In this document: piece after piece, positions 7,169 to 53,460 of the stretch
How the letters are laid out: every line of letters begins with the position of its first letter
How positions within the stretch are numbered: position 1 is the first letter of the stretch
NCBI GenBank assembly: GCA_951406725.2
Contig: OX597833.1
Span: 70,928,001 to 70,992,000, forward strand
DNA from: Octopus vulgaris
Taxonomy: Eukaryota
Direction: 5' to 3'
DNA: 64,000 bases
Program-made: the position numbers and the translations under genes
The notes under the pieces: generated by a model
What the model saw: the letters and a program-made list of their open reading frames with translations, nothing else
Database searches by the model: none
Told to the model about the DNA's origin: nothing

Positions 7169-7337
7169 ACTAATAATATGATGGCTTTGGCATGGTTGTA
7201 TAGTTATGAGGTTTGTTTCACCACCACATGGCTTCAAGTTCAGTCCAGCTTCAGTCAATCTTCTACAATAACCTTAGGCTGACCCAATGCCTGGTCAGTA
7301 AATTTCTTACAGAAAATGCAGAAACTTGTCATGAGGT

Positions 7338-8537: not shown

Positions 8538-8779
8538 GAAAAACAGGCATTAATGGAACAAAGAAATGAATGGATTTCATTCAGGTTATTTGAGGTAAGG
8601 TGATACTAAAAGAGTTAAGGCTGTGTATATATAAAGCTGTGATGTACATTAAAAAAAAAGACTCTGATGTGTGTATAAAGCCATAATTTTATTAGAGATG
8701 TAAATCTTTCCATTGTCCCTGGATTATTAATATTCAATGTAATCTTTTATTTACCTCAGGCAGCTCCATAACATGCAAG

Positions 8780-27289: not shown

Positions 27290-27415
27290 ATGGGCATGGC
27301 AGAAGACGAACCGCTTTTTAGGCTGGATGAGGACATTATTGATTCTGGTAAACCTTGTAAGATTCCTGTTCCACGAAGGGCTGATGGCAAATTGGGTTTC
27401 AGCATAATTATTCAA
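27290..27415 (+). CDS. Coding exon 1 (MGMAEDEPLF...RRADGKLGFSIIIQ), start of PDZ1
   Basis: Acceptor ctcttctcctttcag at 27259, ATG in gatATGG context, GLGF-like carboxylate loop GKLGFSI, donor caa|gtaaga. Confidence 0.85.
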
Positions 27416-27966
27416 GTAAGAATTGGTTATTTTTTCTTTTTTACATATCTTTGATGCCTCTCACTATCCCTCTTACTCTCTCCCCCTTTTTCACAGCCTA
27501 AGACTGACCCCTCTTCTCTCGGGGTTTCTAGTCTTGTGAGCTGCATAACAACCTCAATAGTGATCATCATCATCATCATCATCATTGTTTAATGTCCGCT
27601 TTCCATGCTGGCATGGGTTGGACGATTTTGACTGAAGGCTGGCGAACCAGATAGCCGCACCAGGCTCCAATCTGATCTGGTAGGGTTTCTACAACTGGAT
27701 GCCCTTCCTAACGCCAACCACTCCGAGAGTGTAGTGGATGCTTTTTACGTGCCACCGGCATGGGGGCCAGTCAGGCGGCACTGACAACGACCTCGCTCGA
27801 ATCTTTTACACATGGCACAGGTGCCAGTAAGGCGACGATGTATAAAAGCATCCAGTCCACACTCTGCAAAGTGGTTGGCATTAGGAAGGGCAGCATCCAG
27901 CCGCAGAACCCATCCCAAGGCTGACACAGGAATCTGATGCACTTGTGCAATGGGAAACTGGCTTTA

Positions 27967-28000
<34 letters not shown>

Positions 28001-31000
28001 GTGCAGTTGTTATTTTCTTTTCTTTTACTGGTCTTAGTCATTGGGCTGTGACTGGTCCAGCTGGAGCACTTTCTGACTTCTAAAATGTAACAAGTAAAAA
28101 TATGGAACTTTGGCAGCATTTAGTCCCATTGGAGAGTTCCTGGAATCCCTTCTCCAGTGCCCTTATACTCACCTCATAATACCGATTCTGGCATTACAAA
28201 TCTGTTTTGTATGTTTGGTGTGTGTGTCTGTGTGTCTGTGTACACAAGGTCTGACTGAATATTGCAGTCTGTGGATATATATACCCTGGCGATTTCAGCT
28301 GTTGCACCAACTGTATTTTTATACTTCTTGACTTTTGGCCCACCTTGTCAGGTGTTCATGACATGTGTGTGTGTGTGTGTGTGTGTGTGCATGAGTGTCT
28401 CCTAGATGTATTACTCTTACTCTTTACTCTTTTACTTGTTTCAGTCATTTGACTGCGGCCATGCTGGAGCACCGCCTTTAGTCGAGCAACTCGACCCCGG
28501 GACTTATTCTTTTGTAAGCCCAGTACTTATTCTATCGGTCTCTTTTGCCGAACCGCTAAGTAACGGGGATGTAAACACACCAGCATCGATTGTCAAGCAA
28601 TGCTAGGGGGACAAACACATACATATATATATGTATATATATACACACACGGGAGGCTTCTTTCAGTTTCCGTCTACCAAATTCACTCACAAGGCTTTGG
28701 TCGGCCCGAGGCTATAGTAGAAGACACTTGCCCAAGGTGCCACGCAGTGGGACTGAACCCGGAACCATGTGGTTGGTAAGCAAGCTACTTACCACATAGC
28801 CACTCCTACGTCTACGTATTCTTTAATTGCATTCTAATTCACTCATCCATTTTTTTTTTCTTTCTGTTTTCCAGAAATGTTCCAGTGGAAACATCGCCAA
28901 GGTGACGCAGGTGAAAGACACCTGTTTGTCACGAGAGTTGACCAAATACCACTACATCACAAAAATCGACGAAATTGACATCCGTCACTTGAAGACTCCA
29001 ATGGAGGTTGAGAGTGTGCTGAGTCTGTCGTCCGGCACCGTTGTCCTCTTGGAGGCGTACCGATCTCTCTATCATGATTCCAATGATAATATTCAGAGGA
29101 TGAGTTTGAACTCGAGTGTGTGCAGCAGCAGCAACAGCAGCAGCACAAACAGCATGAATTCTCTGCTGCTGGATGCTGATGGTAGCTGCCATTCTCAACC
29201 GGTGCCAAGACCCATCGCTACTGATACAGTCTCACTGAAAGATGCTGTCTTCAAGAATCCGGATAGCATCCAGTGGGATGCCAAACCAAAAACTGTGATA
29301 TTGAAGAGATCCAGTAGCGGCAAATTTGGATTTGTCTACGAAGTCCTTCTTTCCTCGGTAAATATTTCACTGCCAAGATTGTTGTTTCTCTTTACGTTTC
29401 TCATTTTGCATTCCACCAAGTTCTGCTTTACTTTTGCATCCTTCCAGGGAGGAAACGAATAAGTCCTTGGCCTCCTTGTGCCGACACACTGACAAACGGA
29501 CCCAGGTGGCTTCTTTCATGAGTGGTGGCCACTGTCATTGGTTTTGGGTAGTTTTCATTTGGATACCATTCTCCAATATGTCCTTTTAGTAAATCATTAT
29601 ATTCTTTACCACAGCAGTGAGTCTGCAGAGCTGTCAGCATTCTGGGCAAACTGCTTTGTGGCATTTCATCTGTTTTTAAGTTCTGAGTTCAAACTCTGCC
29701 AAGGTCAACTTTACCTTTCACCCTTTCTGGGTCGATGGAATACACCAGTTGCACCCTGGGATTGATGTAATTGACTCACTCCTGCTCCCAAAATTTCAGG
29801 CCTTGTGTCTGTAGCAGTAAAGGTTATTCATATATTATTTCATATCTAACAAATCTCTTTTCTTCTTCTTTTTTTCAGTTGGTTCCTAAAAACTCGGTGA
29901 ACACTTCTATGGTGAGTAAACCTGTGCGTTTCCTAATCCTTTGTAGCTTGTTCTGAATTTTAACCCTTTGGCTTGTTTAAACTGGCCAAATCCGGCCCAA
30001 ATATTCTACCTATTTTATGTTCAAACTGGCCAGATTCAGCCTATCACACCTATCCTACAATGTCGTTCTAAAAATAAACAGTCACATCACTGAAATCTCA
30101 AAGCTATGAGATACAGGGCACAGGTTTGCAAATGTGGTTTACTGAAGGAGAAAATGCATTTATTATAAAACAGCTGCAAGCGTTACCTTTTGTGCCACCT
30201 AATGACGTAGATACTGTTTGAACAATTCCTTCATTCTTTGAGTGTTCAAATTGATGAAATTTTGGAGGAATTCCTGTCTTATTTTGTGTGTACTCGGGTA
30301 GTAATCGTGCAATGTGGATGACGTCGAAGACCCCTATCTGACATTTCTTTATGGCAGTGCTACCACAGAGTTCTCAATGATCTCCCGGAAACCAACAACT
30401 CCCTAGGAGGTTGGCACCATGCCTTCAGTAGAAGAATTAACATCCATCACCCTAACATATCCAAATTGAGAAGCTTAACCTTTTCGTGACCAACCCGGCT
30501 GAAACTGCCTCTGGCTTTGTAGCACAAATGTCTTGTTTTCATAAGTTTTGAATTAAAATCTTCCACCAAACTTTAGTCACAGTTTATGTTCCTAACACTA
30601 ACTGAATGATAACTAAGTTATTTTACTAAGTTCTTTGTTATATTTAAAGTAATTGAAAGAAACTCAGAGCATCTCAACAGAAATATGGTAATGAAAGGGT
30701 TAACCCTTTAGTGTTCAGATTATTCAATCAAACATAATGTCTATTGATTCCCATTGATTTGAATTAATCATGCATTATCTCATATCTTCAAGATCTTGAT
30801 GGTGTAATTACTTAATGTAGAATAACATTGTAGGGTAGGTGTGAGAGCCTGGATCTGGTCAGTTTGAACATAAAACAGATTAGCTATTTTGGCCGGATAT
30901 GGCCGGTTTAAATACTAAAGGGTTAAGGTAGAACAGTTCCAAACCGAAATGGTAATAAAACTGGCCATATCAGGGATTGAAGTGGCAAGGAAAAGCAAAA

Positions 31001-34000
31001 AATAAATTCACCCAAAGGAAAGACTTAAAACTTTTGTTCTTCATTACAATGATGAAGCTGGGTTGGAATTTTGAAGGACAGGTGTCCATAATTGTATACT
31101 CTTTTACTTGTTTCAGTCATTTGACTGCGGCCATGCTGGAGCACCGCCTTTACTCGAGCAACTCAACCCCGGGACTTATTCTTTTGTAAGCCCAGTACTT
31201 ATTCTATCGTTCTCTTTTGCCGAACCGCTAAGTGACGGGGACATAAACACACCAGCATCGGTTGTCAAGTAATGCTAGGGGGACAAACACAGACACACAA
31301 ACACACACATTATATATATATATATATATATATATACGATGGGCTTCTTTCAGTTTCCGTCTACTAAATCCACTCACAAGGCTTTGGTCGGCCCGAGGCT
31401 ATAGTAGAAGACACTTGCCCAAGGTGCCACGCAGTGGGACTGAACCCAGAACCATGTGGTTGGTAAACAAGCTACTTACCACACAGCCATGCCTGTATGT
31501 GATTTCTGTATTTCTATTTGTAAGACAAACAAAACCTTTTGTGCTTTTTTTTCATGTTGACCTATTTTGCGTAATATCTTTTTATAAATAAATTACTTTT
31601 ATTTGTAAGTCTAATAAAACTTTTTCATAATTTTTACTTTGTTTTTTAAAAATTGTCGACATATTGTCCTTTTGGCAAATTGTCCAATCGGTCAATTGTC
31701 CTGTCTGTAAGTTGTCTCTCGGCCAACTATCTGTTGATGAATTGTCTGTCTACCATTTTTTAGCGTACAGGTATTAGGAAGAGCATCCAGCCATAGAAAC
31801 CAGGCCAAGCTGGAGCCTGTTACAGCTCTCCCACTGACCAATTCCAGTTAAACTATTAAACCCATGCCACCATTGAAAGCAGACACTAAATGAGGGAGTA
31901 AGCACTGGGCTCTGGAGAGATTCTCCTGTCCTCAACCAAACTTTAGGCCCCTCTTCACTCTGCATCCGCTGCTTTCATTTGTCGACCACCTTACAGAGCA
32001 GACTGGACACAGTCTGGGGTTGCCTTCTTATCTACAAGTGTCTGGATGCTCTGCTGTGTCTCTTGTTCAAACGTCATCAATTCTTCTGTGAACTCTTTTA
32101 TAATTAACCCTTTTAGTGTTCAGGTTATTCTATCAAACATAATGCTTATTGATTCCCATTGATTTGAATAAATCATGCATTATGTCATATCTTCAAGATC
32201 TTGATGGTGTAATTACTTAATGTAGAATAACATTGTAGGGTAGGTGTGAGGGCCTGGATCTGGTCAGTTTGAACATAAAACAGATTAACTATTTTGGCCG
32301 GATATGGCCGGTTTAAATACTAAAGGGTTAATTATTGGTCAGAAAGCAAATCCACCTGATTGAAAAAAAAGTAGAAAGAAGACAAGTGGAAGTTTTGAAA
32401 TTTAGTAATTTTTCTTTCTTCTATTTTTTCCAGTATTTTCTTATAACCAAGCTATCAAATGATGCCGCCAGGAAGCTAAAAGTTGGTGACCTCATCCTCT
32501 CTCTAAATGGTATTGCTTGTCAAGACCTAAGTGTGGTGAGTGTATATATTTCTGGATCTATATATATATATATATATATGTATGTATAAGGGTGAAAAGG
32601 AACACACGAGTTGATATATATGAAAAAACAAGTCAAAATAGAAAATGCTAAAATAATTTTATAAAGAACATTTCAGTACCGGTTTCGGTCATTTTGAGAC
32701 CTTTTCAACTGTAACGATTAAATAATTAAATTTAGATAAATTAAAAGAAAAGTTTTTTTAAAGGAATATTTGTATAGTGTTCAAATATAAGTGGCATTTT
32801 CCTTGTTTCTGCCTTTCTCTGTCTCTCTTGTTAACCGCTCTACAATATATATATTGTAAGGTGGTTTAACATATTTAATTATCTTTGGTGTTTGACGAAA
32901 ATCCTATCAAACATATTATTTAATTATTGTCAAAAAACTTAATTGATTTCGAGAGCAACTTTGAAAGCTAGGGACACATGTGAGGGTTATACTAATCTTG
33001 TATTATTCCAAAACTTAAATAATTACATTTGTCATTGAACTTTGGAAATTTCCCACAAATGTAATCAGGTGTACAGGCCATACCTCAATAAGCCCAATAA
33101 ATTTAATGGAGTATATTTTTACTAAATTGGCTAATTTGACATTACTGAAATGCAACATTTAATTTTAGAATAAAACATTGATATCGTTTTTTTCTTCTTT
33201 TTTTCTAGATAAAATAATATTTCTTTTGATTAATTTTTTTCTTCAATTTTTAAATTAAATTCTTTTCTTTTATTCTCCAGAAAAAAGTTATTGACCAGAA
33301 AATAGAAACCGAATCTGAGCTACGACTAATTATTCAAAGACCCGTCAAATTCAAACATAGAAACAATCCGTGTGTTGAACAGAAGAGGATTTGTCCAATA
33401 AAAAGGGTGTTCTTGTGTGGCCCTGCTGCCATGGTGTATTACAACTTCCTGGTGAACAGACTGAAGTCGAACCGTCACAAAACGTCTCAGAATTATCCAA
33501 TGCCAGAAACAAATCTCAATAATGATACAGCTGCTTTCAAAGCTTCCTGTGTGTGGACCCAGCGAGGGACATTTTTTGTTGAGTCCTGGAGTAAACGATC
33601 CTGGTTTTACCATTTGGACGTGAAGCATCTGATAGCGCTTGAGCTACTCGCTTCATCGGACGAGTCTTTCTTTCATCATTGCATGAAACTCACTTTTACT
33701 AAAAACAGCATTTTCTTCATCATGCTGGACTGTCAGCTGTCAAGCGTTACGCAAGGATCCAAGCAAGCGGAACTGCGAATGCTGAAGAGATACATCCATA
33801 CGATTCAGTCTTGCGTTGGAAAAGAGGTACAAATTAAAGTGAAATGTGTCTGTCAGGATAACAGTGAACAATGTCGCAATCAACACAATTACTTCATTGA
33901 CAAAATAATGGTGGAACCCATTGTTATTCCTTCAAATTCTGACCAAAACAGTGACACATTTGTAAATTCTGTCTTTGAACTCGCTAAACAAAAGGAAATC

Positions 34001-36884
34001 TCAATGAGTTACCATGCGGCTTATGCGCTGCACAAGCTCTACCATCTTGGTCTCTGCAAAAGTATTGCAACTGACTTTTTCAAAACTGTTCACAAAGTCT
34101 TTGATAAAATTTCTCAGCAGGATCTTCATCAAACGGTGCGTGAAATGAGTTCCTTCAAATATTATATTGGAGGTAAGTCGTTAGTTGGAGTGGGGAAAAT
34201 ATTTCTTATTTTATTGTAATTTCATCAATTAACTTTTATCATTGTAATAATATTAAAGATTAATTAATTAAATTAATACAACTAAAGAAGGAGGAGGAGG
34301 GCAATAATAATCAAAATCTTGATTGCAATTACTATCATCATCAGCATCATCATTATCAATTTATAAACATTGAGGTTGCTGGTTCTAAGTTTCCAGTAAA
34401 CCAGCCAATGACTCACAGCATTTTTGATGCTCAGGGTCCCAACATGACCATCCAATACAATTTGGATGTAACAGAGACCAAGGATTTTTGTTTAAAAGCA
34501 CCTGTTTATTGGGTTCACATCTTTCATTGATTGGCGCAGGCTTGATGTTAAGATGTTTATCAACAACATGGCTTCAGGTTCGATCCCACTACGTGGCACC
34601 TTGGGCCAATCAAATCCATGTCGTTAGATTTGGTAGACAGAAAATGCAAGAAACCCACAGTTGTGCTCAGACTTTTCCATTCAACAGATCGTATTTAACT
34701 CAATCCACTGCTTACCATTCTCTGTTACCTGTCTTTCACAAGCCAATGTAGGAAACCTCTCTGTGGTTGCTTATCCTACAAGAAACAGTAAGCTGTGCTC
34801 TTGAGCAAGGTGCACAACTCTGCTTGGTTAAGGAAAAACTGGCTCTTCTTGTATTTTGTGGTTGCAGTATTTAGAAAGGATGTCCATACAATTGCCATTT
34901 GGTATCCAAGAAATCAAAGCCTGCTAAGATGCTGGGGAAATGACATACATGGTGAAAAAATTGGGGCTCAAATGAAAGAGAAGGGAACAATCCAAGGGAG
35001 AATGGAATAACTTTGTGACCATCCCAAGAAGTCCAATGCTCATCATCATCATCGTTTAACGTCCGTTCTCCATGCTGGCATGGGTTGGACGGTTCGACCG
35101 GGGATCTGGGAAGCCAGAAGGCTGCACCAGGCTCCAGTCTGATCTGGCAATGTTTCTACAGCTGGATGCCCTTCCTAACGCCAACCACTCCGTGAGTGTA
35201 GTGGGTGCTTTTTACGTGCCACCTGCACAGGTGCCAGGCGAGGCTGGCAACGTCCATGGTCGGATTGGTGCATTTTACATGCCACCGGCACGGAAGCCAG
35301 TCGAGGCGGTGCTGGCTTTGGCCACAATTCGGATGGTGCTTTTTACGTGCCACCGGCATGGAAGCCAGTCGAGGCGGCACTGGCTTCGGCCACGATTCGG
35401 ATAGTGCTTTTTATGTACCACCAGTCCAGGGGTCCTGGCATCTGCCAGGTGCCAGTCATAGGATTGGTTCGCTCGGTGAAGAAATTTAGTTAATAGAAAC
35501 TGCAAGAAGCTTGTTGCATATGTGTGTGTGTGTGTACTTTATTCTACATTGTGTGTTTATGATGTTTTACTTGAACCGACTTGTGGTGGTGATGTTGGCA
35601 TTCTTTGTTGACATTATGACCAATGGCTCCGTGTTTTTGAATAGGAATTCTGTAGACGAGGTCAGAACAGTTACTGGTGGAGTATTTTTCATCACGGAAA
35701 AGTGAATTCCAGAAGAGGGGTCTTGCAAGTCTACCAGTTAGTTGGAAGAGCATTGTAGAAAATAAAGGAGAGGATATTTTAGAATAAAAAAGAACTTTAT
35801 CTTAATTTTGAAAAAATAAAAGAATTATAAAAAACCTGCATTATTTATGGGATGAGACCCAATCTATGTATAAATGCATGATGGGAAGATAAGGCAGTAT
35901 TGGTCTGTTGAACAAAATATCGTATGAAGCCCTTTGCACTCAATTGATTTTGCTTTGCTTCTGTTCTTAATTATGAGGTAAGAACCAACCAAAGAATAGG
36001 ATTCAATATGATTAATTAAAACTCTCTAAAGTGGTGCCCTAGCAATGGCTTCATTCCAGTGACTGGAGCCAGTACCAAGAGAAAGAACCCTGGTAATTGG
36101 AAACTGTGGGGAAGCCTATCAGATACGATGATGATGATGATGATGATGATGATGATATGGAGTCCCTCCTTATAAACAAATTGAGATCGGCCGTTAACAA
36201 CAGGAAGGAACCACATCTAGCAAACTGGTTGCTATAGCAACACCAGTCTATACATATTTCCTTCCTCCCACACACATTTCAGCAACAAATTTTCCATTCC
36301 TTGCTTTTTATCCAAATGTCCTGAAGAAGGTGTCATAACCCCAAAATATAGAAATGCAAAGGTCAAGCGGTCACTTTGTTTTCTTTTTCCTTCTGTTGTT
36401 AACTTTGTACCTTCTCACATTGACCAGCGGCCCTTACACAACAAACCCCTTTAAAGCTGCATCACACACTGCTTCACCAAAAACTTCTCCATTTTAATAT
36501 ATCTACGTGGGGGGGGGGGGGAGTATTTGTTTGAAAAGAGATGGGGGTTGGTGAGAGGAGGGGCATCCAACCATAGAAAGTTTGCCTCAGTGAAATGCAT
36601 TTGACCCATCCAAGCACAGAAAGGTGGACAGTACAACAACGATGATGACATAATACTCTTTACTCTCTTTTACTCTTTTACTCGCTTCAGTCATTTGACT
36701 GCAGCCATGCTGGAGCACCGCCTTGTAGTCGAGCAAATCGACCCCGGGACTTATTCTTTTGTAAGCCCAGTACTTATTCTATCGGTCTCTTTTGCCGAAC
36801 CGCTAAGTGACGGGGACGTAAACACACCAGCATCGGTTGTCAAGCAATGCTAGGGGGACAAACACAGACACACAAACACACACA

Positions 36885-36942
<58 letters not shown>

Positions 36943-39900
36943 TACAACGGGCTTCTTTCAGTTTCCGTCTACCAAATCCACTCACGAGGCATTGGTCGGC
37001 CCGGGGCTATAGCAGAAGACACTTGCCCAAGGTGCCACGCTGTGGGACTGAACCCGGAACCATGTAGTTCGCAAGCAAGCTACTCACCACACAGCCACTC
37101 CTGCGCCTATTCATATAAAATGTAAACAGAATCATCCACATCATCATCATCATCATCATTTTGTCTGCTTTCCATGCTGGCATGAGTTGGATGGTCAAAC
37201 AGAATCCAATAAGTTGGACGACCATGTCTTCTTCCAATGTCACATTTTTAGCAAGGTTTCACCATTTTAAAGTGTGTGTGTGTGGCTTACTTCACACCTT
37301 CAAATACTTGAGAAATAGGAGATCTCATACTTGAGAAACAAGGAAGGTTTGGTGATGTGAGGGGTGTCCATTGCTGAAATGAGAGCTCAAAATCTCTCGT
37401 GGAAGCGCCATCCAACCAAAATGCAAATATATGGGAAACTACCACCTGTGTCATCCCTTGTGAAAGGTAGGAGAGTCCAGTTTGCTGGACATTGTTGTAG
37501 AGCTTAAAAAGAGGTCATTTCTACTCTTCTCCTCTGGAAGCCATCTACTCGCAATACCAGAGGGCGCACACTCTCCTACCCTGATGTAATCTCCAGGGAT
37601 ACAGGCATCCAGCAACAGGACCTCCGTAATGCCATGATGGACCGTGAAGTCTGGCGTAGCATGGTAAATTCCATTGTCTTGACCACGGTCGAACAATGAT
37701 GATGATTGCTAAAATAGTACTTCAATAATATATTAGTCTAACCCATGGAAAAGCAAACATAAAAACAAGGAAACAGATATGATATACGTGTGTGTGTGTG
37801 TTTATTTTCATACAGATATATGTCTATGTAAAATACGAAACTCAATGCAAACCATTTTTTGAATTTATGAATGTGCATCTGTCTTTGATTTTCACTGAAA
37901 AATGTAAACATTGGTGAGGAAAACCAATAAAAACCATTGATTCCAAGCCAAAATACCTTGTATATTTGTTCTGTTACAGCTGCACATATACTCCCTTCTT
38001 ATTCTCACTGTGAAAAATACAGGGAATCCATGACTGGTGCCGCTGGAAACCTGTTCTTCACAAAATGGTGTAAAAATTAAAATTAAATTAGTAGAATATT
38101 CGTTTGTTTCTGTGTCTGGTTTGCAAGATTTTTGATGTGAATTTTGTGTGTTGAAACAAATTTTGTGTTTTGGGAGGGTCATTGCACCAACAATAACACA
38201 TGCACTGACTGTGTGTTATTATTGACATAATGACCTTTTCAGCACACAACAAGAAATAGAATATATATTTTCCAATTTATATTAACTTTTTTTATTTATT
38301 TCTATTTTCCAGTAAATTCCAGAAAATCTGCTCTTTTACCACAAGGAAATAGTTTATATGTAAACATTGAGTACGTTTTAAACTCCATGTCTCAGCTTGC
38401 ATATCAACCAATTTCTTTAGTGAGCAGAAGTCACACTTTCTCTCAATACCACAAAATACCCAACGGAATAGTGGACCAACAGGTTCTGGTCGACAACTTG
38501 TATCCCAGTGATGTCTTCAGCCATTCAGTCCTTGCGTTACTCGAGAGCCACAATGTGATATTAAGCTTAAAGGAGTCGGGCCAGTACGCCTGCACCAAAT
38601 ACTACATCCCCTGTTTGCAGCACAGTTACCAAATGGAAGTGCAGAACCCGTTGATGCATAATGTTTTCTCACTCTACATTCAGTTCTGCAGCAGTGCACA
38701 GCACACGGACTTTCTCAGGCTGGTCATTTCCTTTGGAAATTTATACGGCTGGGAATTACCTCAAGAGATCCAATTATCCCAGTGCAACATCATGGTCGGA
38801 ACACATATGGTTCACTTTCAATACCAGTGGCAGACCCAGCAGGTCAAAATCACCTCAGAGTGAGTTACCTTTTGCATTCGATTAATTTCTCGTTAACCCT
38901 TCAGCATTCAGATTACTCTGTCAAATATAATCCTTATTTATTCTCATTGTTTCGAATTAAAATCATGGATTATCTGCGGAATCCATAAGTGGAAAGTGTA
39001 ACCTCTCGTAAGAGCTGTTCTTCACTCCTGCTCCAGAGCGTCGGCTGCAGGGTCACTCCGAAAAGATCTATCTGCCCCTCTCAAAAGAGAGGGGCTTTCT
39101 CCGTCCGGGTTGCGGATCCGTGGAATAAGCTGCCAGATGAGATAGTGAAGATGCCGACGACTGCTCGGTTCAAAGTCTCTCTCTCTTGACCAGAAATGGC
39201 TTGAACTCTTTGCATGAACACCACCCTCCTTGTACATAACTCCATGTCCCCCTACATGGCCTTGCTTTTTGCTTTTTGAGCCAAAAAATTAACTTAACTT
39301 AACTTAACTATCTCATAGCTTTGAGATTTCAATGATGTGATTGTATATTTTGGAATGACATTGTAGGGTAGGTGTGAGAGGCTGGATCTTGACAGTTTGA
39401 ACCCAAAACGTTGAATATTTGGGCTGAATGTGACTGGTTTGAATGCTAAAGGCTTAGTCATAATTAGAAAGTGTCTCAACCTTTTGCTTATCATATTTCT
39501 ATTAAAATACTCTTTGCTCCATTTAATTATGAAAATAATGAAGAATTTATTATTGAGCTGGCATTTAGAGTATAAATTAACATGAGCCTTTGATGAAAGG
39601 ATTTTAGATCACCTTAACTGTTTTTTGTTACCATATTTCTATAGAAATGGTCTTGTTTCAATTCATTTTGAAATAATGAAGGATTTTATAAAATAACTTT
39701 TCATCATTAAGCTGGTGTTTGAGACATCATCATCATCATCATCATCATCATTTAACGTCCACTTTCCATGCTAGCATGGGTTGGACGATTCGACTGGGGT
39801 CTGGGAAGCCAGGAGGCTGCACCAGGCCCAGTCTGATCTGGCAGTGTTTCTACAGCTGGATGCTCTTCCTAACGCCAATAAATCAATATTAAATTTTTAT

Positions 39901-42900
39901 AGAAGGTTTCAGTTTAGATCATTTTGAAATAAACACACGCACACACACACACACACATATGAACAAACAAACAACAGATCTCCACACATTCTCTCTCTAC
40001 TAAATTCCTTTACAAGGCATTTGTCAGCAACGGGTATAGTAAAAGACACTTTCCCAAGGTTCCGCACAGGAGGAACTGAACCCAGAACCCTTTTTATTTT
40101 CTTCTCTTTCTTAGATCCAATACCTGTGAGATCAACTTGTTTGATCATTATTTGGAGGAAATGTTTGCACAAAAACATACGCAAGGAAGGAATTTTTAGA
40201 AAGCTGGCATTCTGCAGAATGAACACGGGGCTTGAAAGAATGTGTGTGTGGTGGAGGGGTGCATAGTACATATATGTCTATATATATATATATATATTAA
40301 CCTGGCTTTTATTTTCGTTTTATTTTCCTCTAGAATCACAACTCAGTCCAATGAAGAAACTCTATTTCACATATTCCAACAACTTCATCAAGTCTGCGTG
40401 GCTGTATTCCCATACAGCTTCTTCAAGTATTACGGACGATGCCACAACCCACAGTGCATCTACTGTTGCCATTCTCAGAGGAAACATGAATCTCCAATCT
40501 TTTGCACACATCTCATCAATGAAACCCAAGTGAAGCAAATCGTAAGTTATTCCTCTCTGTGTGTGTTCTTTACTGTTTTGGTCATTAAGCTGTCTTTGGA
40601 CTGCAATGTCATCATCATCATCATTGTTTAACGTCCGTTTTCCATGCTAGCATGGGTTGGACAGTTCGACCAGGATTTGGAAGGAGGCTGCACCAGGCAC
40701 CAGTCTGATCTGGCAAGGTTTCTACAGCTGAATGCCCTTCCTAATGCCAACCACTCCATGAGTGTAGTGGGTGCTTTTTACATGCCACCGGCACAGGAGC
40801 CAGAGGAGTCCATTGCAGAATTTCTTGTTCCCTCACCATTTATTTGATCTCTTATCATTATGCTCTGTATTCAACTAATGCTTTATTCTGAGGCATATAT
40901 CTATTGAGTTCTAACCCCAAGTTATTACTATCGCTATGCCTAAGTAAAACATGTATATATATATATATATATATATCATCATCATCATCATCATCGTTTA
41001 ACGTCTGCTTTCCATGCTAGCAGTGGTTGGACGGTTCAACTGGGGTCTGGGAAGCCAGAAGGCTGCACCAGGCCCAGTCTGATCTGGCAGTGTTTCTACA
41101 GCTAGATGCCCTTCCTAACGCCACATATATATATATATAGAGATAGATAGATAGATAGACAGATATGTATACTAACACATTCATACATGATGGGCTTCTT
41201 TCAGTTTCTGTCTACCAAATCCACTCACAAGGCTTTGGCCTGTCCAAGGCTATAGTAGAAGACACTTGCCAAAAATGCCATGCATTGGTATTGAGCCTGG
41301 AACCCCATGGCTGGGAAGCACGCTTCTTAACCATGAAGCCAGGCCTGTGCCAAAGTTATTTTCAAAAGATTTAAAAAGAAGCCATGTTGAACACTGCTAT
41401 TTCGAGTTCCTTTTCATCTTTTTTCTTTCTTTTTATTCCGTTTTCAGGGTAAAGTGATCGATGTTGAAAAAATGTCTGTACTTGAGTTGAATTCCAAAAT
41501 TCTCTTTCACATCTGTCTGGAACTAAATTCTAACCCAAGTCTCAACTGGAAAATGCTGGCTGGTAAGAGAACCTACAACCTACATCCAACACCTTTGTCG
41601 TTGTTTTAAATGTCCTCCTTTCCATGCTTGTAAGGGTCTCCCTGACTCTGTCAAAGCTGACTTTTTCATGGCCTGATGTGCTTCTTCTCATTAACCCTCA
41701 CCTGTTTCCAGATAAGATTAATATTTCCCCATGGTTGAATGTGTTTCCAAGGAAGACAGGAAACGAATGACACTGCTTGTATGACAGTGACACTCGTTTA
41801 CAACTGTCACACCATGTCAAGACAGACATTCACACACTCACACACACACGTGTATGTACAACGGGGTTATTCCAGTTTCAGGGTCTTTGGTTGCAGTAAA
41901 GGCTGTAGTAGAACACACTTGTCCAGGGTGCTGTGCAGTGGGTTTGAAACTAAGACCTTCCGGTTTGGAAGCATTGAAATCTCTTACTCTTTACTCTCTC
42001 TTTTACTTGTTTCAGTCATTTGACTGTGGCCATGCTGGAGCACCGCCTTTAGTCGAGCAAATCGACCTCGGGACTTATTCTTTTGTAAGCCCAGTACTTA
42101 TTCTATCGGTCTCTTTTGCCGAACCGCTAAGTAACGAGGACATAGACACACCAGCATCGGTTGTCAAGCAATGCCAGGGGGACAAACACAGACACACAAA
42201 CACACACACGCATATATATATATATATACACGACAGGCTTCTTTCAGTTTCCGTCTACAAAATCCACTCTAAAGGCATTGGTCGGCCCAGGGTTATAGCA
42301 GAAGACACTTGCCCAAGATGCCACACAGTGGGACTGAACCCAGAACCATGTGGTTGGTTAGCAAGCTACTTACCACACAGCCACTACTGCGCCTATTTAT
42401 TTTTCGGACATTTCCATTTTCGTTGTTTATTCTTGAAGAATTGCAACTAACTGATTGGGAAGGGCAATATTGGTGTTGTACCCCCCCTTAATTCAGCCCT
42501 GATCAAGCGGACATGTAGTCAGAGGCCTTCCAGTTATGACTCTCCCATTGGAGAGCGACGAGATTTTATTGGAGTTATCTCCCTTGCTAAATCTTTCTTA
42601 TTAAAACTTCTGAATAATTTTGATGCAGAATAATTAAACGGATGCAAAACCTGTTTGTTCTTTCGTTAATATTAAGGGAGGTTGGGCTCATTCGTAAGTT
42701 TGAGAACTTTTTCCCCGAAGGCAGGGGGAGGGGATATTTGTCCCTCAGTTTTATGCATAATCTCTGTGTAGGTTCATTGATTCTTTATCACTGGCATGGC
42801 TCTGCGTTTTTTGGCTTAAGCCAGTGTTAACACATCTTATGCAGGGAGCTCTGATGCTTTTGTTTTCTATCTTTGCTCTCTCTCTCTCAAAATTTACATT

Positions 42901-44673
42901 TGAAATCCAAATGGGATAAAAAAAATGTTTAAAATAATAATGAAATTATTGTATACGGTGCTCAGGTGCACCACAACTTGTTAGAGTACATGCAGTAGTG
43001 TACAAATGTCTGGAAAGCGAAGAATGCATGAGTAAGATACATGCCTGTGTGTGTATGGAGGGGAGAAAATCAGGTGTAGTGTTGGCGAATCTCAGGAAGC
43101 ATGGAAGTTTTGAAGGATGCAGTGCTCCGACAACTAACAACTGATGCCGGCAGTTTGTTCCATGCTTCAGCAACTCTCAGCGTGAAAAATGTTTCCTGAA
43201 GTCATGGGAGCTGTGCTGTTTTCTGACTTTGTAAACATGTCCACGGGTGTTAGACGGGTGGAGTTTGAAAAGGTGCTCAGAGTTATTGTTTGTACGATGG
43301 TTGATAATTTTATGGGTGTCTGCCAAGTCAGCTGCCAGACTCCGGAGTTGATGGACGAGGAATTACTCTATATCACTCTCGGATGAAAGAGGCTGGGGAT
43401 GTAACACAAGATGGTTTTTTTATGTTTTTATGGGATGTCTAACATGTTGGGCATGCAGTTACAATTTGATGTTTGTTGCTGGTGGCACTAAAGAAAATTG
43501 AAATATGGACCTGGCGATTCCATCTCTGCTGCTGCGGCTGGACACTTTTACATCTGCTTCTAAGACTTCTGTGCTTTGTGGTGTGGTGGAGATTTGAAAC
43601 TGAATCCCTGCTTACATGGTCAGACATCAGGAGCAAAACACCACATGTTCCACGTGATCAGTCTATTGACTGGTCAGTGTGAAGTGATGGTGGGGGGCAG
43701 GTTTTCTTGGACATTCTGGACATTACCCATGACTTTCAGAAATGTCCTGTTGTTTGGATTTATAAACATGTCCACAAATGGTAGAATTTCAAAAAGGTGG
43801 ACATGTTTACAAAGTCAGAAAACAGCACAGCTCCTTCCAGGACTTTCAGAAACATTTTTCATGTTAAGATTTGCCGAAGCATGGAACAAACTGCCGGCAT
43901 CAGTTATTAGTTGTCGGAGCACTGCATCCTTCAAAACTTCCATGCTTCCTGAGATTTGCCAACACTACAACTGATTTTCTCCCCTCCATACACACACAAG
44001 CATGTATCTGACTCATATACTGTTCACTTTCCAGACATTTGTACATTACTGCATATACTTTATACACACTTTTGACAAGTTGTGGTGCACCTGAGCACTG
44101 TATACAATAATTTCATTATTATTATTATTTATATACCATACCTATTTCTTTACTACCCACAAGGGGCTAAACACAAAGGGGACAAACAAGGACAGACATA
44201 GGTATTAAGTTGATTACATCGACCCCAGTGCGTAACTGGTACTTAATTTATCGACCCCGAAAGGATGAAAGGCAAAGTCGACCTCGCCGGAATTTGAACT
44301 CACAACGTAACGGCAGACGAAATACCTCTAAGCATTTCACCCGGCGCGCTAATGTTTCTGCCAGCTCGCCGCCTTTATATACCATACCTGTTTCCTGCTT
44401 ATTACACACACACACACATATTAAAATATTTCTTGATCAATGTTCTGTTTTCTTTCCTCAGGTCATTTGAACTGTGATCTTTCTTTGGTCGGAAGATATG
44501 AAAGCAGCCAGGATCCCTGCATAAATGTTTTGGTCGACTGGAATAATACATCACTGAACAGCACTGCAATAAACTTCCGTAAGATTCTTCATGACATGAA
44601 GCGATACGACCTGGCTAAACTCGTTGAAGAGGAATTGGACAAACTTAGAAGAGAACAGAGTAGTGACTGCTAA
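27290..44673 (+). CDS. Spliced 9-exon gene, 905 aa: PDZ-PDZ-degenerate Roc-COR-Death domain protein (Roco-like scaffold)
   Basis: Exons 27290-27415, 28875-29357, 29879-29911, 32434-32535, 33281-34172, 38313-38859, 40334-40541, 41448-41562, 44462-44673 join in frame (phases 0,0,0,0,1,2,0,1; 2718 nt). Each acceptor has a pyrimidine tract plus AG and each donor is GTRRR-type. In-frame TGA upstream of ATG 27290; AATAAA at 44697-44702. Confidence 0.88.
27565..28000. mobile_element. Inverted pair of RTE-tail elements in intron 1
   Basis: 27565-27840 on the minus strand abuts 27841-28000 on the plus strand ending in (GAT)n. Confidence 0.7.
28412..28808 (-). mobile_element. SINE family A
   Basis: Sequence identity to other copies. 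Confidence 0.85.
28875..29357 (+). CDS. Coding exon 2: rest of PDZ1, Ser-rich linker, start of PDZ2 (KRSSSGKFGF)
   Basis: Acceptor ttctgttttccag, open frame inside ORF 28827-29462, donor tcg|gtaaat. Confidence 0.88.
29879..29911 (+). CDS. Coding exon 3: 33-nt microexon LVPKNSVNTSM within PDZ2
   Basis: ctaac branch-like motif, long pyrimidine tract and cag, donor atg|gtgagt, phase 0-0. Confidence 0.75.
30475..30926. mobile_element. piggyBac-type MITE 1 and MITE 2 sharing one TTAA
   Basis: Junction gaaaggg-TTAA-cccttta at 30700-30703. Confidence 0.85.
31097..31493 (-). mobile_element. SINE family A
   Basis: Sequence identity to other copies. Confidence 0.85.
32104..32331. mobile_element. piggyBac-type MITE family 2
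   Basis: TTAA-CCC...GGG-TTAA, nearly identical to 30700-30926. Confidence 0.85.
32434..32535 (+). CDS. Coding exon 4: PDZ2 core (YFLITKLSNDAARKLKVGDLILSLNGIACQDLSV)
   Basis: Classic PDZ motif LKVGDxILxxNG; acceptor ttttttccag, donor gtg|gtgagt. Confidence 0.9.
32674..32711 (-). ncRNA. Minimal hammerhead ribozyme motif, U3-A8 core, intron 4
   Basis: Minus strand CAG-TTGAAAA-GGTC tcaaaat GACC-GAA-ACCGGT-A-CTG: all three stems, GUA triplet. Confidence 0.65.
33281..34172 (+). CDS. Coding exon 5: end of PDZ2, degenerate Roc domain, start of COR
   Basis: 892-nt open exon; RVFLCG (G1 position), FFHHCMKLTFTKNSIFFIMLD (Roc post-G3 pattern); donor gag|gtaagt. Confidence 0.88.
35040..35460 (-). mobile_element. 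RTE-tail element with ~4 internal subrepeats
   Basis: Conserved tail followed by repeated ttttacgtgccacc units; shorter copies at 39725-39877, 40608-40803, 40977-41123, 54030-54300. Confidence 0.75.
36654..37108 (-). mobile_element. SINE family A
   Basis: Sequence identity to other copies. Confidence 0.85.
37460..37706 (+). pseudogene. RTE-like LINE C-terminal fragment
   Basis: Translates, with a frameshift, to QFAGHCCRA...WKP...RGRTLSYPDVISRDTG...LRNAMMDREVWRSMV, then (TGA)n tail. Confidence 0.65.
38313..38859 (+). CDS. Coding exon 6: COR-like domain
   Basis: Phase-1 acceptor tattttccag; NGIV...LALLESHNVI...YYIPCL pattern typical of COR; donor ga|gtgagt. Confidence 0.85.
38976..39309 (+). 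mobile_element. CR1 family 1 3' fragment inserted in a MITE family 2 copy (38893-39456)
   Basis: FSVRVADPWNKLP motif, (AACTT)n tail, tatct repeated at both junctions. Confidence 0.8.
40334..40541 (+). CDS. Coding exon 7: COR C-terminal part with Cys/His-rich segment
   Basis: Phase-2 acceptor ttttcctctag; RCHNPQCIYCCH...FCTH; donor atc|gtaagt. Confidence 0.85.
41448..41562 (+). CDS. Coding exon 8: Death domain N-half (LELNSKILFHICLELNSNPSLNWKMLAG)
   Basis: Acceptor ccgttttcag; death-domain WKxLA motif; donor ctg|gtaaga. Confidence 0.85.
41985..42394 (-). mobile_element. SINE family A
   Basis: Sequence identity to other copies. Confidence 0.85.
42930..43400 (-). mobile_element. CR1-type LINE family 2 3' fragment
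   Basis: Minus strand RGHVYKVRKQHSSHDF..LRVAEAWNKLPASVV..FK, (ATT)n tail. Confidence 0.8.
43790..44129 (+). mobile_element. CR1-type LINE family 2 3' fragment, inverted relative to 42930-43400
   Basis: FFMLRFAEAWNKLPASVISCRSTASFK, (ATT)n tail. Confidence 0.8.
44140..44376 (-). mobile_element. SINE family B
   Basis: Matches 6950-7168; flanked by tataccatacct direct repeats (possible TSD). Confidence 0.8.
44462..44673 (+). CDS. Coding exon 9: Death domain C-half and stop
   Basis: Phase-1 acceptor tctttcctcag; DPCINVLVDW...LHDMKRYDLAKLV matches death-domain PxxxLLxxW...LxxMxRxD; TAA at 44671-44673. Confidence 0.88.
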
Positions 44674-47002: not shown

Positions 47003-47449
47003 GTGAATTCTGCATAATTTATTCTATGACCTCTGCATAATTTATGTGACCTCTGCATAACTGCATAATTACATCTGAACTCCCCTTAACTTCTATGTGA
47101 TCCCTTTGTGACTTATACCTCCAATTTGCATAATTTATGTGTAACCTTTCTCCCATTTTTTTTTATTTTTCTGCTCAAACACACTGCCTTTGGTTTTACT
47201 TAATTTGTAAAATAATGCAAAAATTTAACGAAACGACTTTTGTTATTAATTAACCTGATGCTCTGAACAAAAAATTAACCTGAAATTTGGATGCAAGTTG
47301 TTAATTCAGATTCCTTTAAAAGATGAAGGTTTGTATTAAAGAACCAGGGCCAGGTTGGTATCAAAGGAATTATGCATGAGTTCTTGGTAACTTAGGAGCG
47401 ACTTCTACACAGCTTAAGGATCATCTCTTATTTGGAAACCATGGGTAAA

Positions 47450-50400
47450 TTATGTGTGAGTCATCTACATATATTAAGTGTAACTCCTTTGCATAAATTA
47501 TTTCTGACACTTCTGCATAGATTATTCGTGACTTCTCTGCATAGATTACTTGTGACTTCTCTGCATAAATTATACATTACTCATTTGCATAAATTATTTG
47601 TGACTCCTCTGCATAGATTATTTGTTACTCCCCTGCATAGATTATTTGTGACTCCTCTGCATAGATTATTTGTGACACCACTGCATAGATTATTTGTGAC
47701 TCCTCCGCATAGATTATTCGTGACTCCACTGCATAGATCCTTTATGACTCCTCTGTATAGATTATTTATGACTCCTCTGCATAGATTATTCGTGACTCCT
47801 CTGCATAAATTATTCGTAACTCCTCTGTATAGATAATTTGTGACTCCTCTGCATAGATTATTTGTGACTCCTCTGCATAGATTATTTGTGACTACTCTGC
47901 ATAGATTATTTGTGACTCCTCAGCATAGATTATTTGTGACTCCTCTGTACAGATTATTTGTGATTCCTCTGCATAGATTATTTGTGATTCCTCTGCATAG
48001 ATTATTTGTGACACCTCTGCATAGATTATTTGTGACTCCTCTGCATAGATTATTTGTTGACTCCCTGCATAGATTATTTGTGACTCCTCTGCATAGATTA
48101 TTCGTGACTCCTCTGCATAGATTATTCGTGACTCCTCTGCATAGATTATTCGTGACTCCTCTGCATAGATTGTTTGTGACTCCTCTGCATAGATTATTTG
48201 TGACTCCTCTGCATAGATTATTTGTGACTCCTCTGCATAGATTATTTGTGACTCCTCTGCATAGATTATTTGTGAGTCCTCTGCATAAATTATTTGTGAC
48301 TCCTCTGCATAGATTATTTGTGACTACTCTGCATAGATTATTTGTGACTCCTCAGCATAGATTTTTTGTGACTCCTCTGTACAGATTATTTGTGATTCCT
48401 CTGCATAGATTATTTGTGATTCCTCTGCATAGATTATTTGTGACTCCTCTGCATAGATTATTTGTGACTCCTCTGCATAGATTATTTGTGACTCCTCTGC
48501 ATAGATTATTTGTGACTCCTCTGCATAGATTATTTGTGACTTCTTTGCATAGATTATTTGTGACTCCTCTGCATAGATTATTTATGACTCCTCTGCATGA
48601 ATTATTTGTTACTCCCCTGCATAGATTATTTGTGACTCCTCTGCATAGATTATTTGTGACACCACTGCATAGATTATTTGTGACTCCTCTGCATAGATTA
48701 TTTGTGACTCCTCTGCATAGATTATTTGTGACTCCTCTGCATAGATTATTTGTGACTCCTCTGCATAAATTATTCGTGTCTCCTCTGCATAGATAATTTG
48801 TAACTCCTCTGCATAGATTATTTGTGACTCTTCTGCATAGATTATTGGTGACTCCTCTGCATAGATTATTTGTGACTCCTCTGCATAGATTATTTGTGAC
48901 TCCTCCGCGTAGATTATTTGTGACTCCTCTGCATAGATTATTCGTGACTCCTCTGCATAGATTATCTGTGACTCCTCAGCATAGATTATTTGTCACTTCT
49001 CTGCATAGATTATTTGTGACTCCTCTGCATAGATTATTTGTGACTCCTCTGCATAGATTATTTGTGACTCCTCTGCATAGATTATTTGTGACTCCTCTGC
49101 ATAGATTATTTGTGACTCCTCTGCATAGATTATTTGTGACTCCTCTGCATAGATTATTTGTGACTCCTCTGCATAGATTATTTGTCACTTCTCTGCATAG
49201 ATTATTTGTGACTCCTCTGCATAGATTATTTGTGACTCCTCTGCATAGATTATTTGTGACTCCTCTGCATAGATTATTTGTGACTCTTCTGCATAGATTA
49301 TTTGTGACTCCTCTGCATAGATTATTCGTGACTCCTCTGCATAGATTATTTGTGACTCCTCTGCATAGATTATTTTTGACTCCTCTGCATAGATTATTTG
49401 TGACTCCTCTGCATAGATTATTTGTGACTCCTCTGCATAGATTATTTGTGACTCCTCTGCATAGATTATTTGTGACTCCTCTGCATAGATTATTTGTGAC
49501 TCCTCTGCATAGATTATTTGACTCCTCTGCATAGATTATTTGTGACTCCTCTGCATAGATTATTTGTGACTCCTCTGCATAGATTATTTGTGACTCCTCT
49601 GCATAGATTATTTGTGACTCCTCTGCATAGATTATTTGTGACTCCTCTGCATAGATTATTTGTGACTCCTCTGCATAAATTATTCGTGACTCCTCTGCAT
49701 AGATTTTTGTGACTCCTCTGCATAGATTATTCGTGACTTCTGCATAGATTATTTGTGACTCCTCTGCATAGATTATTTGTGACTCCTCTGCATAGATTAT
49801 TTGTGACTCCTCTGCATAGATTATTCGTGAGTCCTCTGTACAGATTTTTCGTGACTCCTCTGCATAGATTATTTGTGACTTCTCTGCATAGATTATTTGT
49901 GACTCCTCTGCACAGATTATTTGTGACTCCTCTGCATAAATTATTTGTGACTCCTCTGCATAGATTATTGTGACTCCTCTGCATAGATTATTTGTGACTC
50001 CTCTGCATAGATTATTTGTGACTCCTCTGCATAGATTATTTGTGACTCCTCTGCATAGATTATTTGTGACTCCTCTGCATAGATTATTTGTGACTCTTCT
50101 GCATAGATTATTGCTGACTCCTCTGCATAGATTATTTGTGACTCCTCTGCATAGATTATTCGTGACTCCTCTGCATAGATTGTTTGTGACTCCTCTGCAT
50201 AGATTATTTGTGACTCCTCTGCATAGATTATTTTTGACTCCTCTGCATAGATTATTTGTGACTCCTCTGCATAGATTATTTGTGACTCCTCTGCATAGAT
50301 TATTCGTGACTCCTCTGCATAGATTATTTGTGACTCCTCTGCATAGATTATTTGTGACTCCTCTGCATAGATTATTTGTGACTCCTCTGCATAGATTATT

Positions 50401-53400
50401 TGTGACTCCTCTGCATAGATTATTTGTGACTCCTCTGCATAGATTATTTGTGACTCTTCTGCATAGATTATTTGTGACTCCTCTGCATAGATTATTTGTG
50501 ACTCCTCTGCATAGATTATTTGTGACTCCTCTGCATAGATTATTTGTGACTCCTCTGCATAGATTATTTGTGACTCCTCTGCATAGATTATTGTGACTCT
50601 TCTGCATAGATTTTGTGACTCTCTGCATAGATTATTTGTGACTCCTCTGCATAGATTATTTGTGACTCCTCTGCATAGATTATTTGTGACTCCTCTGCAT
50701 AGATTATTTGTGACTCCTCTGCATAAATTATATCTGACTCCTCTGCATAAATTATACGTTACTCATTTGCATAAATTATTTGTGACTCCTCTGCATAGAT
50801 TATTTGTTACTCCTCTGCATAGATTATTTGTGACTCTTCTGCATAGATTATTTGTGACTCCTCTGCATAGATTATTTGTGACTCCTCCGCATAGATTATT
50901 CGTGACTCCTCTGCATAGATCCTTTTGTGACTCCTCTGCATAGATTATTTGTGACTCCTCTGCATAGATTATTCGTGACTCCTCTGCATAGATTGTTTGT
51001 AACTCCTCTGTATAGATAATTTGTGAATCCTCTGCATAGATTATTTGTGACTCTTCTGCATAGATTATTGGTGACTCCTCTGCATAGATTAATTGTGACT
51101 CCTCTGCATAAATTATTTGTGACTCCTCTGCATAAATTATTTTTGACTCCCCTGCATAAGATTATTTGTGACTCCTCTGCATAGATAATTTGTGACTCCT
51201 CTGCATAGATTATTTGTGACTTCTTTGCATAGATTATTTGTGACTCCTCTGCATAGATTATTTGTGACTCCTCTGCATAGATTGTTTGTGACTCCTCTGC
51301 ATAGATTATTTGTGACTCCTCTGCATAGATTAATTGTGACTCCTCTGCATAGATTATTTGTGACTCCTCTGCATAGATTATTAGTGACTCCTCTGCATAG
51401 ATTATTTGTGACTCCTCTGCATAGATTATTGTGACTCCTCTGCATAAATTATTGTGACTCCTCTGCATAGATTATTTGTGACTCCTCTGCATAGATTATT
51501 CGTGACTCCTCTGCATAGATTATTTGTGACTCCTCCGCATAGATTATTTGTGACTCCTCTACATAGATTAATTTTGACTCCTCTGCATAAATTATTTGTG
51601 TCTCCTCTGCATAGATAATTTGTATCTCCGCTGCATAGATTATTTGTGACTCCCTGCATAGATTATTTGTGACTCCTCTGCATAGATTATTTGTGACACT
51701 TCTGCATAGATTATTTGTGACTCCTCTGCATAGATTATTCGTGACTCCTCTGCATAGATTATTTGTGACTCCTCTGCATAGATTATTCGTGACTCTTCTG
51801 CATAGATTATTTGTGACTCCTCTGCATAGATTATTTGTGACTCCTCTGCATAGATTATTTGTGACTCCTCTGCATAGATTAATTGTGACTCCTCTGCATA
51901 GATTATTTGTGACTCCTCTGCATAGATTATTTTGTGACTCCTCTGCATAGATTATTTGTGACTCCTCTGCATAGATTATTGTGACTCCTCTGCATAGATT
52001 ATTTGTGACTCCTCTGCATAGATTATTTGTGACTCCTCTGCATAGATTATTAGTGACTCCTCTGCATAGATTATTTGTGACTCCTCTGCATAGATTATTT
52101 GTGACTCCTCTGCATAGATTATTTGACTCCTCTGCATAGATTAAATGTGACTCCTCTGCATAGATTATTTGTGACTCCTCTGCATAGATTACTTGTGACT
52201 CCTCTGCATAGATTATTTGTGACTCCTCTGCATAGATTAATTGTGACTCCTCTGCATAGATTAATTGTGATTCTTCTGCATAGATTACTTGTGACTCCTC
52301 TGCACAAATTATTCGTGACTCCTCTGCATAGATTATTTGTGACTCCTCTGCATAGATTATTTGTGACTCCTCTGCATAGATTATTTGTGACTCCTCTGCA
52401 TAGATTATTTGTGACTCCTCTGCATAGATTATTTGTGACTCCTCTGCATAGATTATTTGTGACTCCTCTGCATAGATTATTTGTGACTCTCTCTTATCTC
52501 TGCATAGATTATTTGTGACTCCTCTGCATAGATTATTTGTGACTCCTCTGCATAGATTATTTGTGACTCCTCTGCATAGATTAATTGTGACTCCTCTGCA
52601 TAGATTAATTGTGATTCTTCTGCATAGATTACTTGTGACTCCTCTGCACAAATTATTCGTGACTCCTCTGCATAGATTAATTGTGACTCCTCTGCATAGA
52701 TTAATTGTGACTCCTCTGCATAGATTACTTGTGACTCCTCTGCATAGATTATTTGTGACTCCTCTGCATAGATTATTTGTGACTCCTCTGCATAGATTAT
52801 TTGTGACTCTTCTGCATAGATTACTTGTGACTCCTCTGCATAGATTATTTGTGACTCCTCTGCATAGATTATTTGTGACTCTTCTGCATAGATTACTTGT
52901 GACTCCTCTGCATAGCTTATTTGTGACTCTTCTGCATAGATTATTTGTGACTCCTCTGCATAGATTGTTTGTGACTCCTCTGCATAGATTGTTTGTGACT
53001 CCTCTGAATGAATTATTCGTGTCTCCTCTGCGTAGACTATTTGTGACTCCTCTGCATAGATTATTCGTGACTCCTCCGCATAGATTATTCGTGACTCCAC
53101 TGCATAGATCCTTTGTGACTCCTCTGCATAGATTGTTTGTGACTCCTCTGCATGAATTATTCGTGACTCCTCTGCATAGACTATTTGTGACTCCTCTGCA
53201 TAGATTATTCGTGACTCCTCTGCATAGATTATTCGTGACTCCACTGCATAGATCCTTTGTGACTCCACTGCATAGATTATTTGTGACTCCTCTGCATAGA
53301 TTATTTGTGACTCCTCTGCATAGATTAATTGAGACTCCTCTGCATACATTAATTGAGACTCCTCTGCATACATTATTTGTGACTCCTCTGCATAGATTAA

Positions 53401-53460
53401 TTGTGACTCCTCTGCATAGATTATTCGTGAGTCCTCTGCACAAATTATTCGTGACTCCTC
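47450..53460. repeat. Minisatellite, 24-bp unit TTATTTGTGACTCCTCTGCATAGA, ~250 copies
   Basis: Direct reading; source of the LFVTPLHR/NNLCRGVT/IIYAEESQ pseudo-ORFs. Confidence 0.97.

Follow-up and report, generated by a model that had tools for sequence, protein, structure and literature searches.

The question raised by this locus is whether a Roc-like domain stripped of its GTPase motifs belongs to a working gene, and what such a domain could do in the protein that carries it. The window, a 64,000-nucleotide stretch of Octopus vulgaris DNA to which all coordinates refer unless another locus is named, holds nine segments between 27290 and 44673 (+) that together encode all of P0001, a 905-aa octopus protein recorded as the uncharacterised LOC115221472. 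The initial annotation had singled out an intact, open exon, and this was borne out: exon 5 (33281-34172, +) consisted of 297 open codons, its translation was identical to P0001 residues 249-545, and all of the quoted peptides fell inside it.

The nine coding exons, all on the + strand, encode domains in the order PDZ-PDZ-Roc-like-COR-like-Death. Exon 1 (27290-27415; aa 1-42) contained the start of PDZ1, matched P0001 exactly, and was followed by a GT donor, while exon 2 (28875-29357; aa 43-203), matched by both contigs and P0001, encoded the remainder of PDZ1, a Ser-rich linker, and the start of PDZ2. Exon 3 (29879-29911; aa 204-214) was flanked on both sides by GT..AG joints in 4/4 runs. PDZ2 continued in exon 4 (32434-32535; aa 215-248), with a Pfam PDZ E-value of 9e-4 and a PDZ fold at Z 11.0 in VIA with the full model, and ended in exon 5, which also held the entire pseudo-Roc domain and the start of the COR-A-like region. 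Exon 6 (38313-38859; aa 546-728) encoded the end of the COR-A-like and the start of the COR-B-like region, with low model confidence, and this part gave full-model matches to Roc-COR structures. Exon 7 (40334-40541; aa 728-797) closed the COR-B-like region with a Cys cluster in which C764, C769, and C785 were invariant; this Cys/His cluster is a possible zinc site. The death domain started in exon 8 (41448-41562; matched by contigs and P0001) and was completed, together with the stop codon, in exon 9 (44462-44673), with a death fold at Z 12.7 in VIA with the full model. As a side observation, the PDZ pair (27290-32535) may stem from a tandem duplication, and octopus PDZ2 with its N-terminal extension aligned to PDZ1 and extension of abalone (pairwise E 1e-5).

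GT..AG exon joints were present in the contigs of all four runs, which came from four studies, and two single contigs each spanned exon 2 to exon 9; the stretch covered by this comparison runs from exon 2 onwards and leaves out exon 1 (27290..27415). The joints point to mRNA as the source of these runs, which are not recorded as RNA. A paralogue search within the octopus genome returned one match, the P0001 locus itself. Downstream, the gene is adjoined by a satellite array (47449-53460) in which a 24-bp unit is repeated about 251 times with 92% matches, and shorter tandem arrays at 825-1618 and 7210-8605 yield long repetitive open frames.

The initial annotation had further proposed that the G1, G3, and G4 motifs were all lost, and the motif scans agreed with it at each position. 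Neither GxxxxGK[ST] nor GK[ST] occurred anywhere in the 905-aa protein, and its Roc-like part contained neither DxxG nor [NT][KH]xD. The degenerate G1 (33419-33430, +), located within the peptide RVFLCGPAAMVYYNFLVNRL (33404-33463, +; exon 5), reads G295-P-A-A298, and both G295 and Ala298 are invariant in the family. Since β1 ends at 294 and helix α1 begins at A298 in the full-protein as well as the exon-only model, while in ten control ORFs chosen from the same genome for GxxxxGK[ST], including the intact LRR-Roc-COR gene, the distance between the first Gly and the Lys is six residues, the P-loop of P0001 is apparently three residues short, with Ala298 at the inferred position of the Lys in a register that, like that of G4, was set by hand.

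The degenerate G3 and switch II (33650-33700, +) overlap the peptide LELLASSDESFFHHC (33638-33682, +; exon 5) and have Ala372 in place of the Asp and Asp375 in place of the Gly, followed by a conserved FFH...FT stretch. G3 reads A/V-x-x-D/N, not DxxG, in 7/7 sequences shown, and from β3 to the threonine of FLT the family is in gapless register with the intact octopus Roco; a DFLG in the relatives from two transcript-sized clusters sits after helix α1 and not at G3. The peptide VKCVCQD, which had been read as G4, was located at 33839-33859 (+) in exon 5, and the degenerate motif itself (33842-33859, +) has KCVCQD where the intact Roco has VGTHAD. It was not conserved among relatives: Asp441 occupies the G4 Asp position in P0001 alone, with E, H, P, or L elsewhere. 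The pattern said to survive around these motifs did so only in part. The FFH...FT stretch is conserved, with F378, F379, H380, F387, and T388 as switch II invariants, but TQRGTFFVESW (33557-33589, +; exon 5) is not: its Thr is found only in the octopods, and W351 and R354 are the only invariant residues near it. The G2 Thr is not conserved. SIFFIMLD (33707-33730, +) and YIHTIQS (33791-33811, +) were likewise located in exon 5.

Word-index searches for relatives found the octopus cluster, Argonauta, and two transcript-sized clusters and nothing else, an exhaustive single-sequence search added abalone alone (E 8.7e-4), and no relatives were found in the scanned genome and metagenome contigs. Identities to P0001 were 96% for O. 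bimaculoides, 74% for Argonauta, 35-36% for the two transcript-sized clusters, and 24-25% for abalone, and the O. sinensis relative showed 4 differences, none of them in Roc. The Haliotis asinina protein P0012 has two PDZ domains, a Roc-like region, and a death domain with the same motif loss and, unlike H. rubra P0009, continues through the COR-like and death domains; the H. rubra model ends at 812 aa, past the Roc-like domain, and is possibly truncated. When the abalone Roc region was searched against the octopus genome, the single locus found was the P0001 gene (E 6e-6), its putative orthologue. In the Roc-like domain, 21 invariant residues concentrate in β1-α1, switch II-β4, and α3.

The family motif scan found G1, G4, and a DxxG at the G3 position absent in 13/13 sequences, and the P-loop Lys loss expected of orthologues was shared throughout, since none of the 13, abalone included, keeps GK[S/T] at G1. 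Because the motifs are missing from each of the 13 relatives examined, which range from Octopus through Argonauta to abalone at about 25% identity, the loss is old. Selection on the exon, also suggested initially, was supported: across the six large exons, 13/13 coding differences seen in contigs were synonymous (3.9 expected randomly, P about 5e-8), a figure that reflects alleles or very close species and not a cross-lineage dN/dS, and in the Roc exon the count was 5/5 (1.2 expected, P about 4e-4). The numbers tabulated per exon agreed with the individual differences. The Roc-like gene is under purifying selection. A gene in decay, or a functionless loss specific to octopus, would fit the fast evolution of the family (35% identity to the transcript-sized clusters and 24% to abalone), but the intact spliced contigs from four studies, the exclusively synonymous differences, and the same motif loss in abalone largely refute this reading, to which I assign hardly any probability. 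The octopus pseudo-Roc gene is real and not an artefact, with a conserved pseudo-Roc domain in a PDZ-PDZ-Roc-COR-Death protein.

Sequence profiles by themselves fail to identify the Roc-like domain. Pfam, the check proposed for its identity, matched neither Roc nor COR when the exon and 10 proteins, together 11 distinct family sequences, were scanned; it reported a weak PDZ on P0001, PDZ and Death on relatives with Death over the cut-off, and no kinase or ankyrin repeat in the full-length family proteins. A PDB sequence search with the exon returned no match, and a family profile searched against PDB sequences matched two PDZ regions (PDZ1 included) and the death domain, with only PDZ and death domains in the best 60 of 147 rows. 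The pseudo-Roc G domain (33386-33991, +; aa 284-485) was recognised from the AF2 model and VIA instead. The order of strands and helices is that of a G domain at about 288-485 in the full-protein AlphaFold model (8-sequence alignment, family members only; mean pLDDT 52) and again in the exon-only AF2 model (pLDDT 66, pTM 0.68), so that two models, both of middling quality, predict a G domain where a different fold would have spoken against the initial annotation. All 50 matches listed by VIA for the exon-only model were GTPases or complexes containing one, and the G fold of the Roc-like region is, at the level of modelling, well supported.

The family from which this G domain derives was less sharply indicated by the exon-only model, for which VIA ranked LRRK2 best (Z 10.4, rmsd 3.9, 181 residues aligned) but gave Rabs and Roco2 scores within 1 Z of it; in Foldseek the leading matches were Rabs, and LRRK2 came 14th. 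An origin in another Ras-like family, Rab-like or other, followed by a C-terminal region that is not a true COR, would agree with this Foldseek ranking, with the failure of Pfam to match Roc or COR, and with the low confidence of the COR model. I consider it distinctly unlikely, as the full model best matches Roc-COR proteins over about 500 columns: the first four places in Foldseek went to two chains of C. tepidum Roco, LRRK1, and RocCOR 3dpu, with 487-538 columns and E-values of 3e-8 to 1e-7. LRRK2 was also first in VIA, and the alignment extends beyond the G domain, with residues 283-782 of the full model aligned to LRRK2 1329-1831 (Z 10.8, rmsd 21). The stretch from G3 to FLT is gapless against a Roco, and a Cys cluster closes the region as it does in the intact octopus Roco. 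The top ESM Atlas clusters for the octopus and abalone proteins, counted as one evidence source, were Roc or Roc/COR (score 0.91). Roc ancestry of the G domain is likely.

The assignment of the C-terminal region as COR is probable on low-confidence modelling. The top Roc-COR matches in Foldseek, including LRRK2, covered about 490-560 columns but with an rmsd of 24-27 Å, and the Atlas clusters carry COR-A whereas the COR-like region of P0001 has no Pfam COR match and a low pLDDT. The modelled COR identity is weaker than the Roc identity because the COR part of the full model has a pLDDT mostly under 50-60 and the Roc-COR matches in Foldseek have an rmsd of about 24 Å.

With a shortened phosphate loop, Ala in place of the Lys, and an acidic residue in place of the G3 Gly, the Roc-like domain very likely binds no GTP. 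By its sequence and predicted fold, P0001 fits the class i pseudoGTPases as defined in the excerpt of PMC5593906, and since it failed the Roco GTPase motif tests at G1, G3, and G4, it is Roco-derived and not a Roco GTPase. Residual binding of a nucleotide or another small ligand in an atypical manner, which would make the domain a class ii pseudoGTPase or a ligand sensor, is unlikely in my estimation. G295 is invariant, two relatives (P0006 and P0010) retain a second Gly (G-S-G), Asp441 stands at the G4 Asp position in P0001, and the class i definition itself, in the same excerpt, allows atypical nucleotide binding; against this stand the apparent lack of three loop residues, the Ala in place of Lys across all lineages, the Asp or Asn in place of the G3 Gly, and a G4 Asp position occupied variously by D, E, H, P, and L.

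The explanation that I prefer, and hold to be probable as a full mechanism though well short of secure, is that a nucleotide-free (class i) pseudoGTPase forms the core of a PDZ-PDZ-Roc-COR-Death signalling scaffold. Because the switch II aromatics are kept while the nucleotide contacts are gone, the conserved FFH...FT stretch may still pack on COR and fix the module in a single conformation. What such a scaffold connects is suggested by the PDZ pair and the death domain at the C-terminus, neither of which the initial annotation mentions. PDZ domains recognise C-terminal tails, and the partners of death domains are other death folds, so that the protein would connect death-fold signalling to a site at a membrane or junction: by analogy, the PDZ pair could anchor it to membrane or junction proteins through their C-terminal tails, and the death domain could bring in partners with a death fold that act in immune or cell-death signalling. 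The output would then be governed by where the scaffold is localised or how it clusters, and not by a GTP cycle. In Aplysia, TLR- and MyD88-like proteins carry ROCO domains (excerpt of PMC9334734), which makes a role in immunity or cell death plausible by analogy.

A rival reading, which goes back to the initial annotation, has the protein pair through COR with an active Roco, as its dominant-negative or regulatory partner. A candidate partner exists in the same genome, an intact LRR-Roc-COR gene with a 1068-codon open frame (L024:1844-5050) and intact G1, G3, and G4, here labelled MFHAS1-like by architecture alone, and according to the excerpt of PMC6337361 COR mediates dimerisation of C. tepidum Roco and contributes to it in LRRK2. 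Between octopus and abalone, however, no folded part is less conserved than the COR-like regions (18-19% identity, as compared with 26% for the Roc-like domain), and when the family Roc-COR was compared by HHalign with the intact octopus Roco, the probability was below 1%, a weak comparison with a single-sequence template. The proposal is thus unsupported, and I regard it as improbable. The nucleotide-free scaffold is the preferred reading, and more speculatively its family may be an ancient, overlooked animal Roco branch of PDZ-pseudoRoc-COR-Death proteins, in which Roc-COR acts as a nucleotide-free, locked scaffold between PDZ-bound membrane proteins and death-domain signalling; I would put this forward only tentatively.

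Literature searches, covering largely non-subscription papers without their supplements, found no pseudoGTPase Roco, and within the same largely non-subscription scope nothing was found on five locus and protein identifiers, nor any degenerate or inactive Roco with a COR domain. No protein combining Roc-COR with PDZ was apparent from titles and the starts of abstracts, and term searches of the accessible text of PMC4104024, PMC11378527, and PMC8195603 found no inactive Roc. The pseudoGTPase examples in the excerpt of PMC5593906 include no Roc domain, and the term 'Roc' does not occur in that of PMC12490416. By definition Roco proteins are GTPases, and with the P0001 family Roc would join a short roster of pseudoGTPases. 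Retention of Roc-COR in gastropods and cephalopods without G1, G3, and G4 would mean that its structural role is separable from nucleotide binding. These two lineages split roughly 500 million years ago. If the ancient-branch reading is true, it would amount to a natural experiment on Roc-COR function without a GTP cycle, and the family offers a ready test protein for the role of Roc-COR, a matter of interest since the relation of the GTP cycle to COR dimerisation is described as still debated for LRRK2 (excerpt of PMC6337361). Surveys based on Pfam miss such members, which are annotated as uncharacterised or PDZ-containing only.

Compared with the Roco GTPases (LRRK1/2, MFHAS1, C. tepidum Roco), P0001 shares a predicted G domain, a probable COR-like region directly after it, the conserved switch II aromatic stretch, and the best structural matches, but it is without G1, G3, and G4, has no LRR or kinase, and carries two PDZ domains on one flank and a death domain on the other. 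No other part of active Rocos is as conserved as switch II, which contacts COR, and G4-G5 is somewhat variable even in true Rocos (excerpt of PMC6337361). MFHAS1 genes are stated in the excerpt of PMC4104024 to exist only in deuterostomes. The C-terminal half of DAPK1, as described in the excerpt of PMC6337361, resembles P0001 in having Roc-COR followed by a death domain at the C-terminus, while the N-terminal kinase and ankyrin repeats of the DAPK1 group are absent from P0001 by Pfam and a PDZ pair is present instead. The look-alike clusters in the Atlas contain Roc (82-92%) and Death (56-63%), with Mollusca as the commonest taxon, and the mollusc Roc-COR-Death clusters mostly match the Pfam Roc model, which the P0001 family does not. 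Among known pseudoGTPases, the examples in the excerpts include neither a Roc domain nor a Roc-COR tandem, and lack of binding has been measured in them, whereas in P0001 it is inferred. The short loop of P0001 is comparable to p190 pG1, in which an extended helix α1 occludes the phosphate cavity (excerpt of PMC5593906), and the pseudoGTPase domain of AAGAB is a protein-interaction module (excerpt of PMC12490416).
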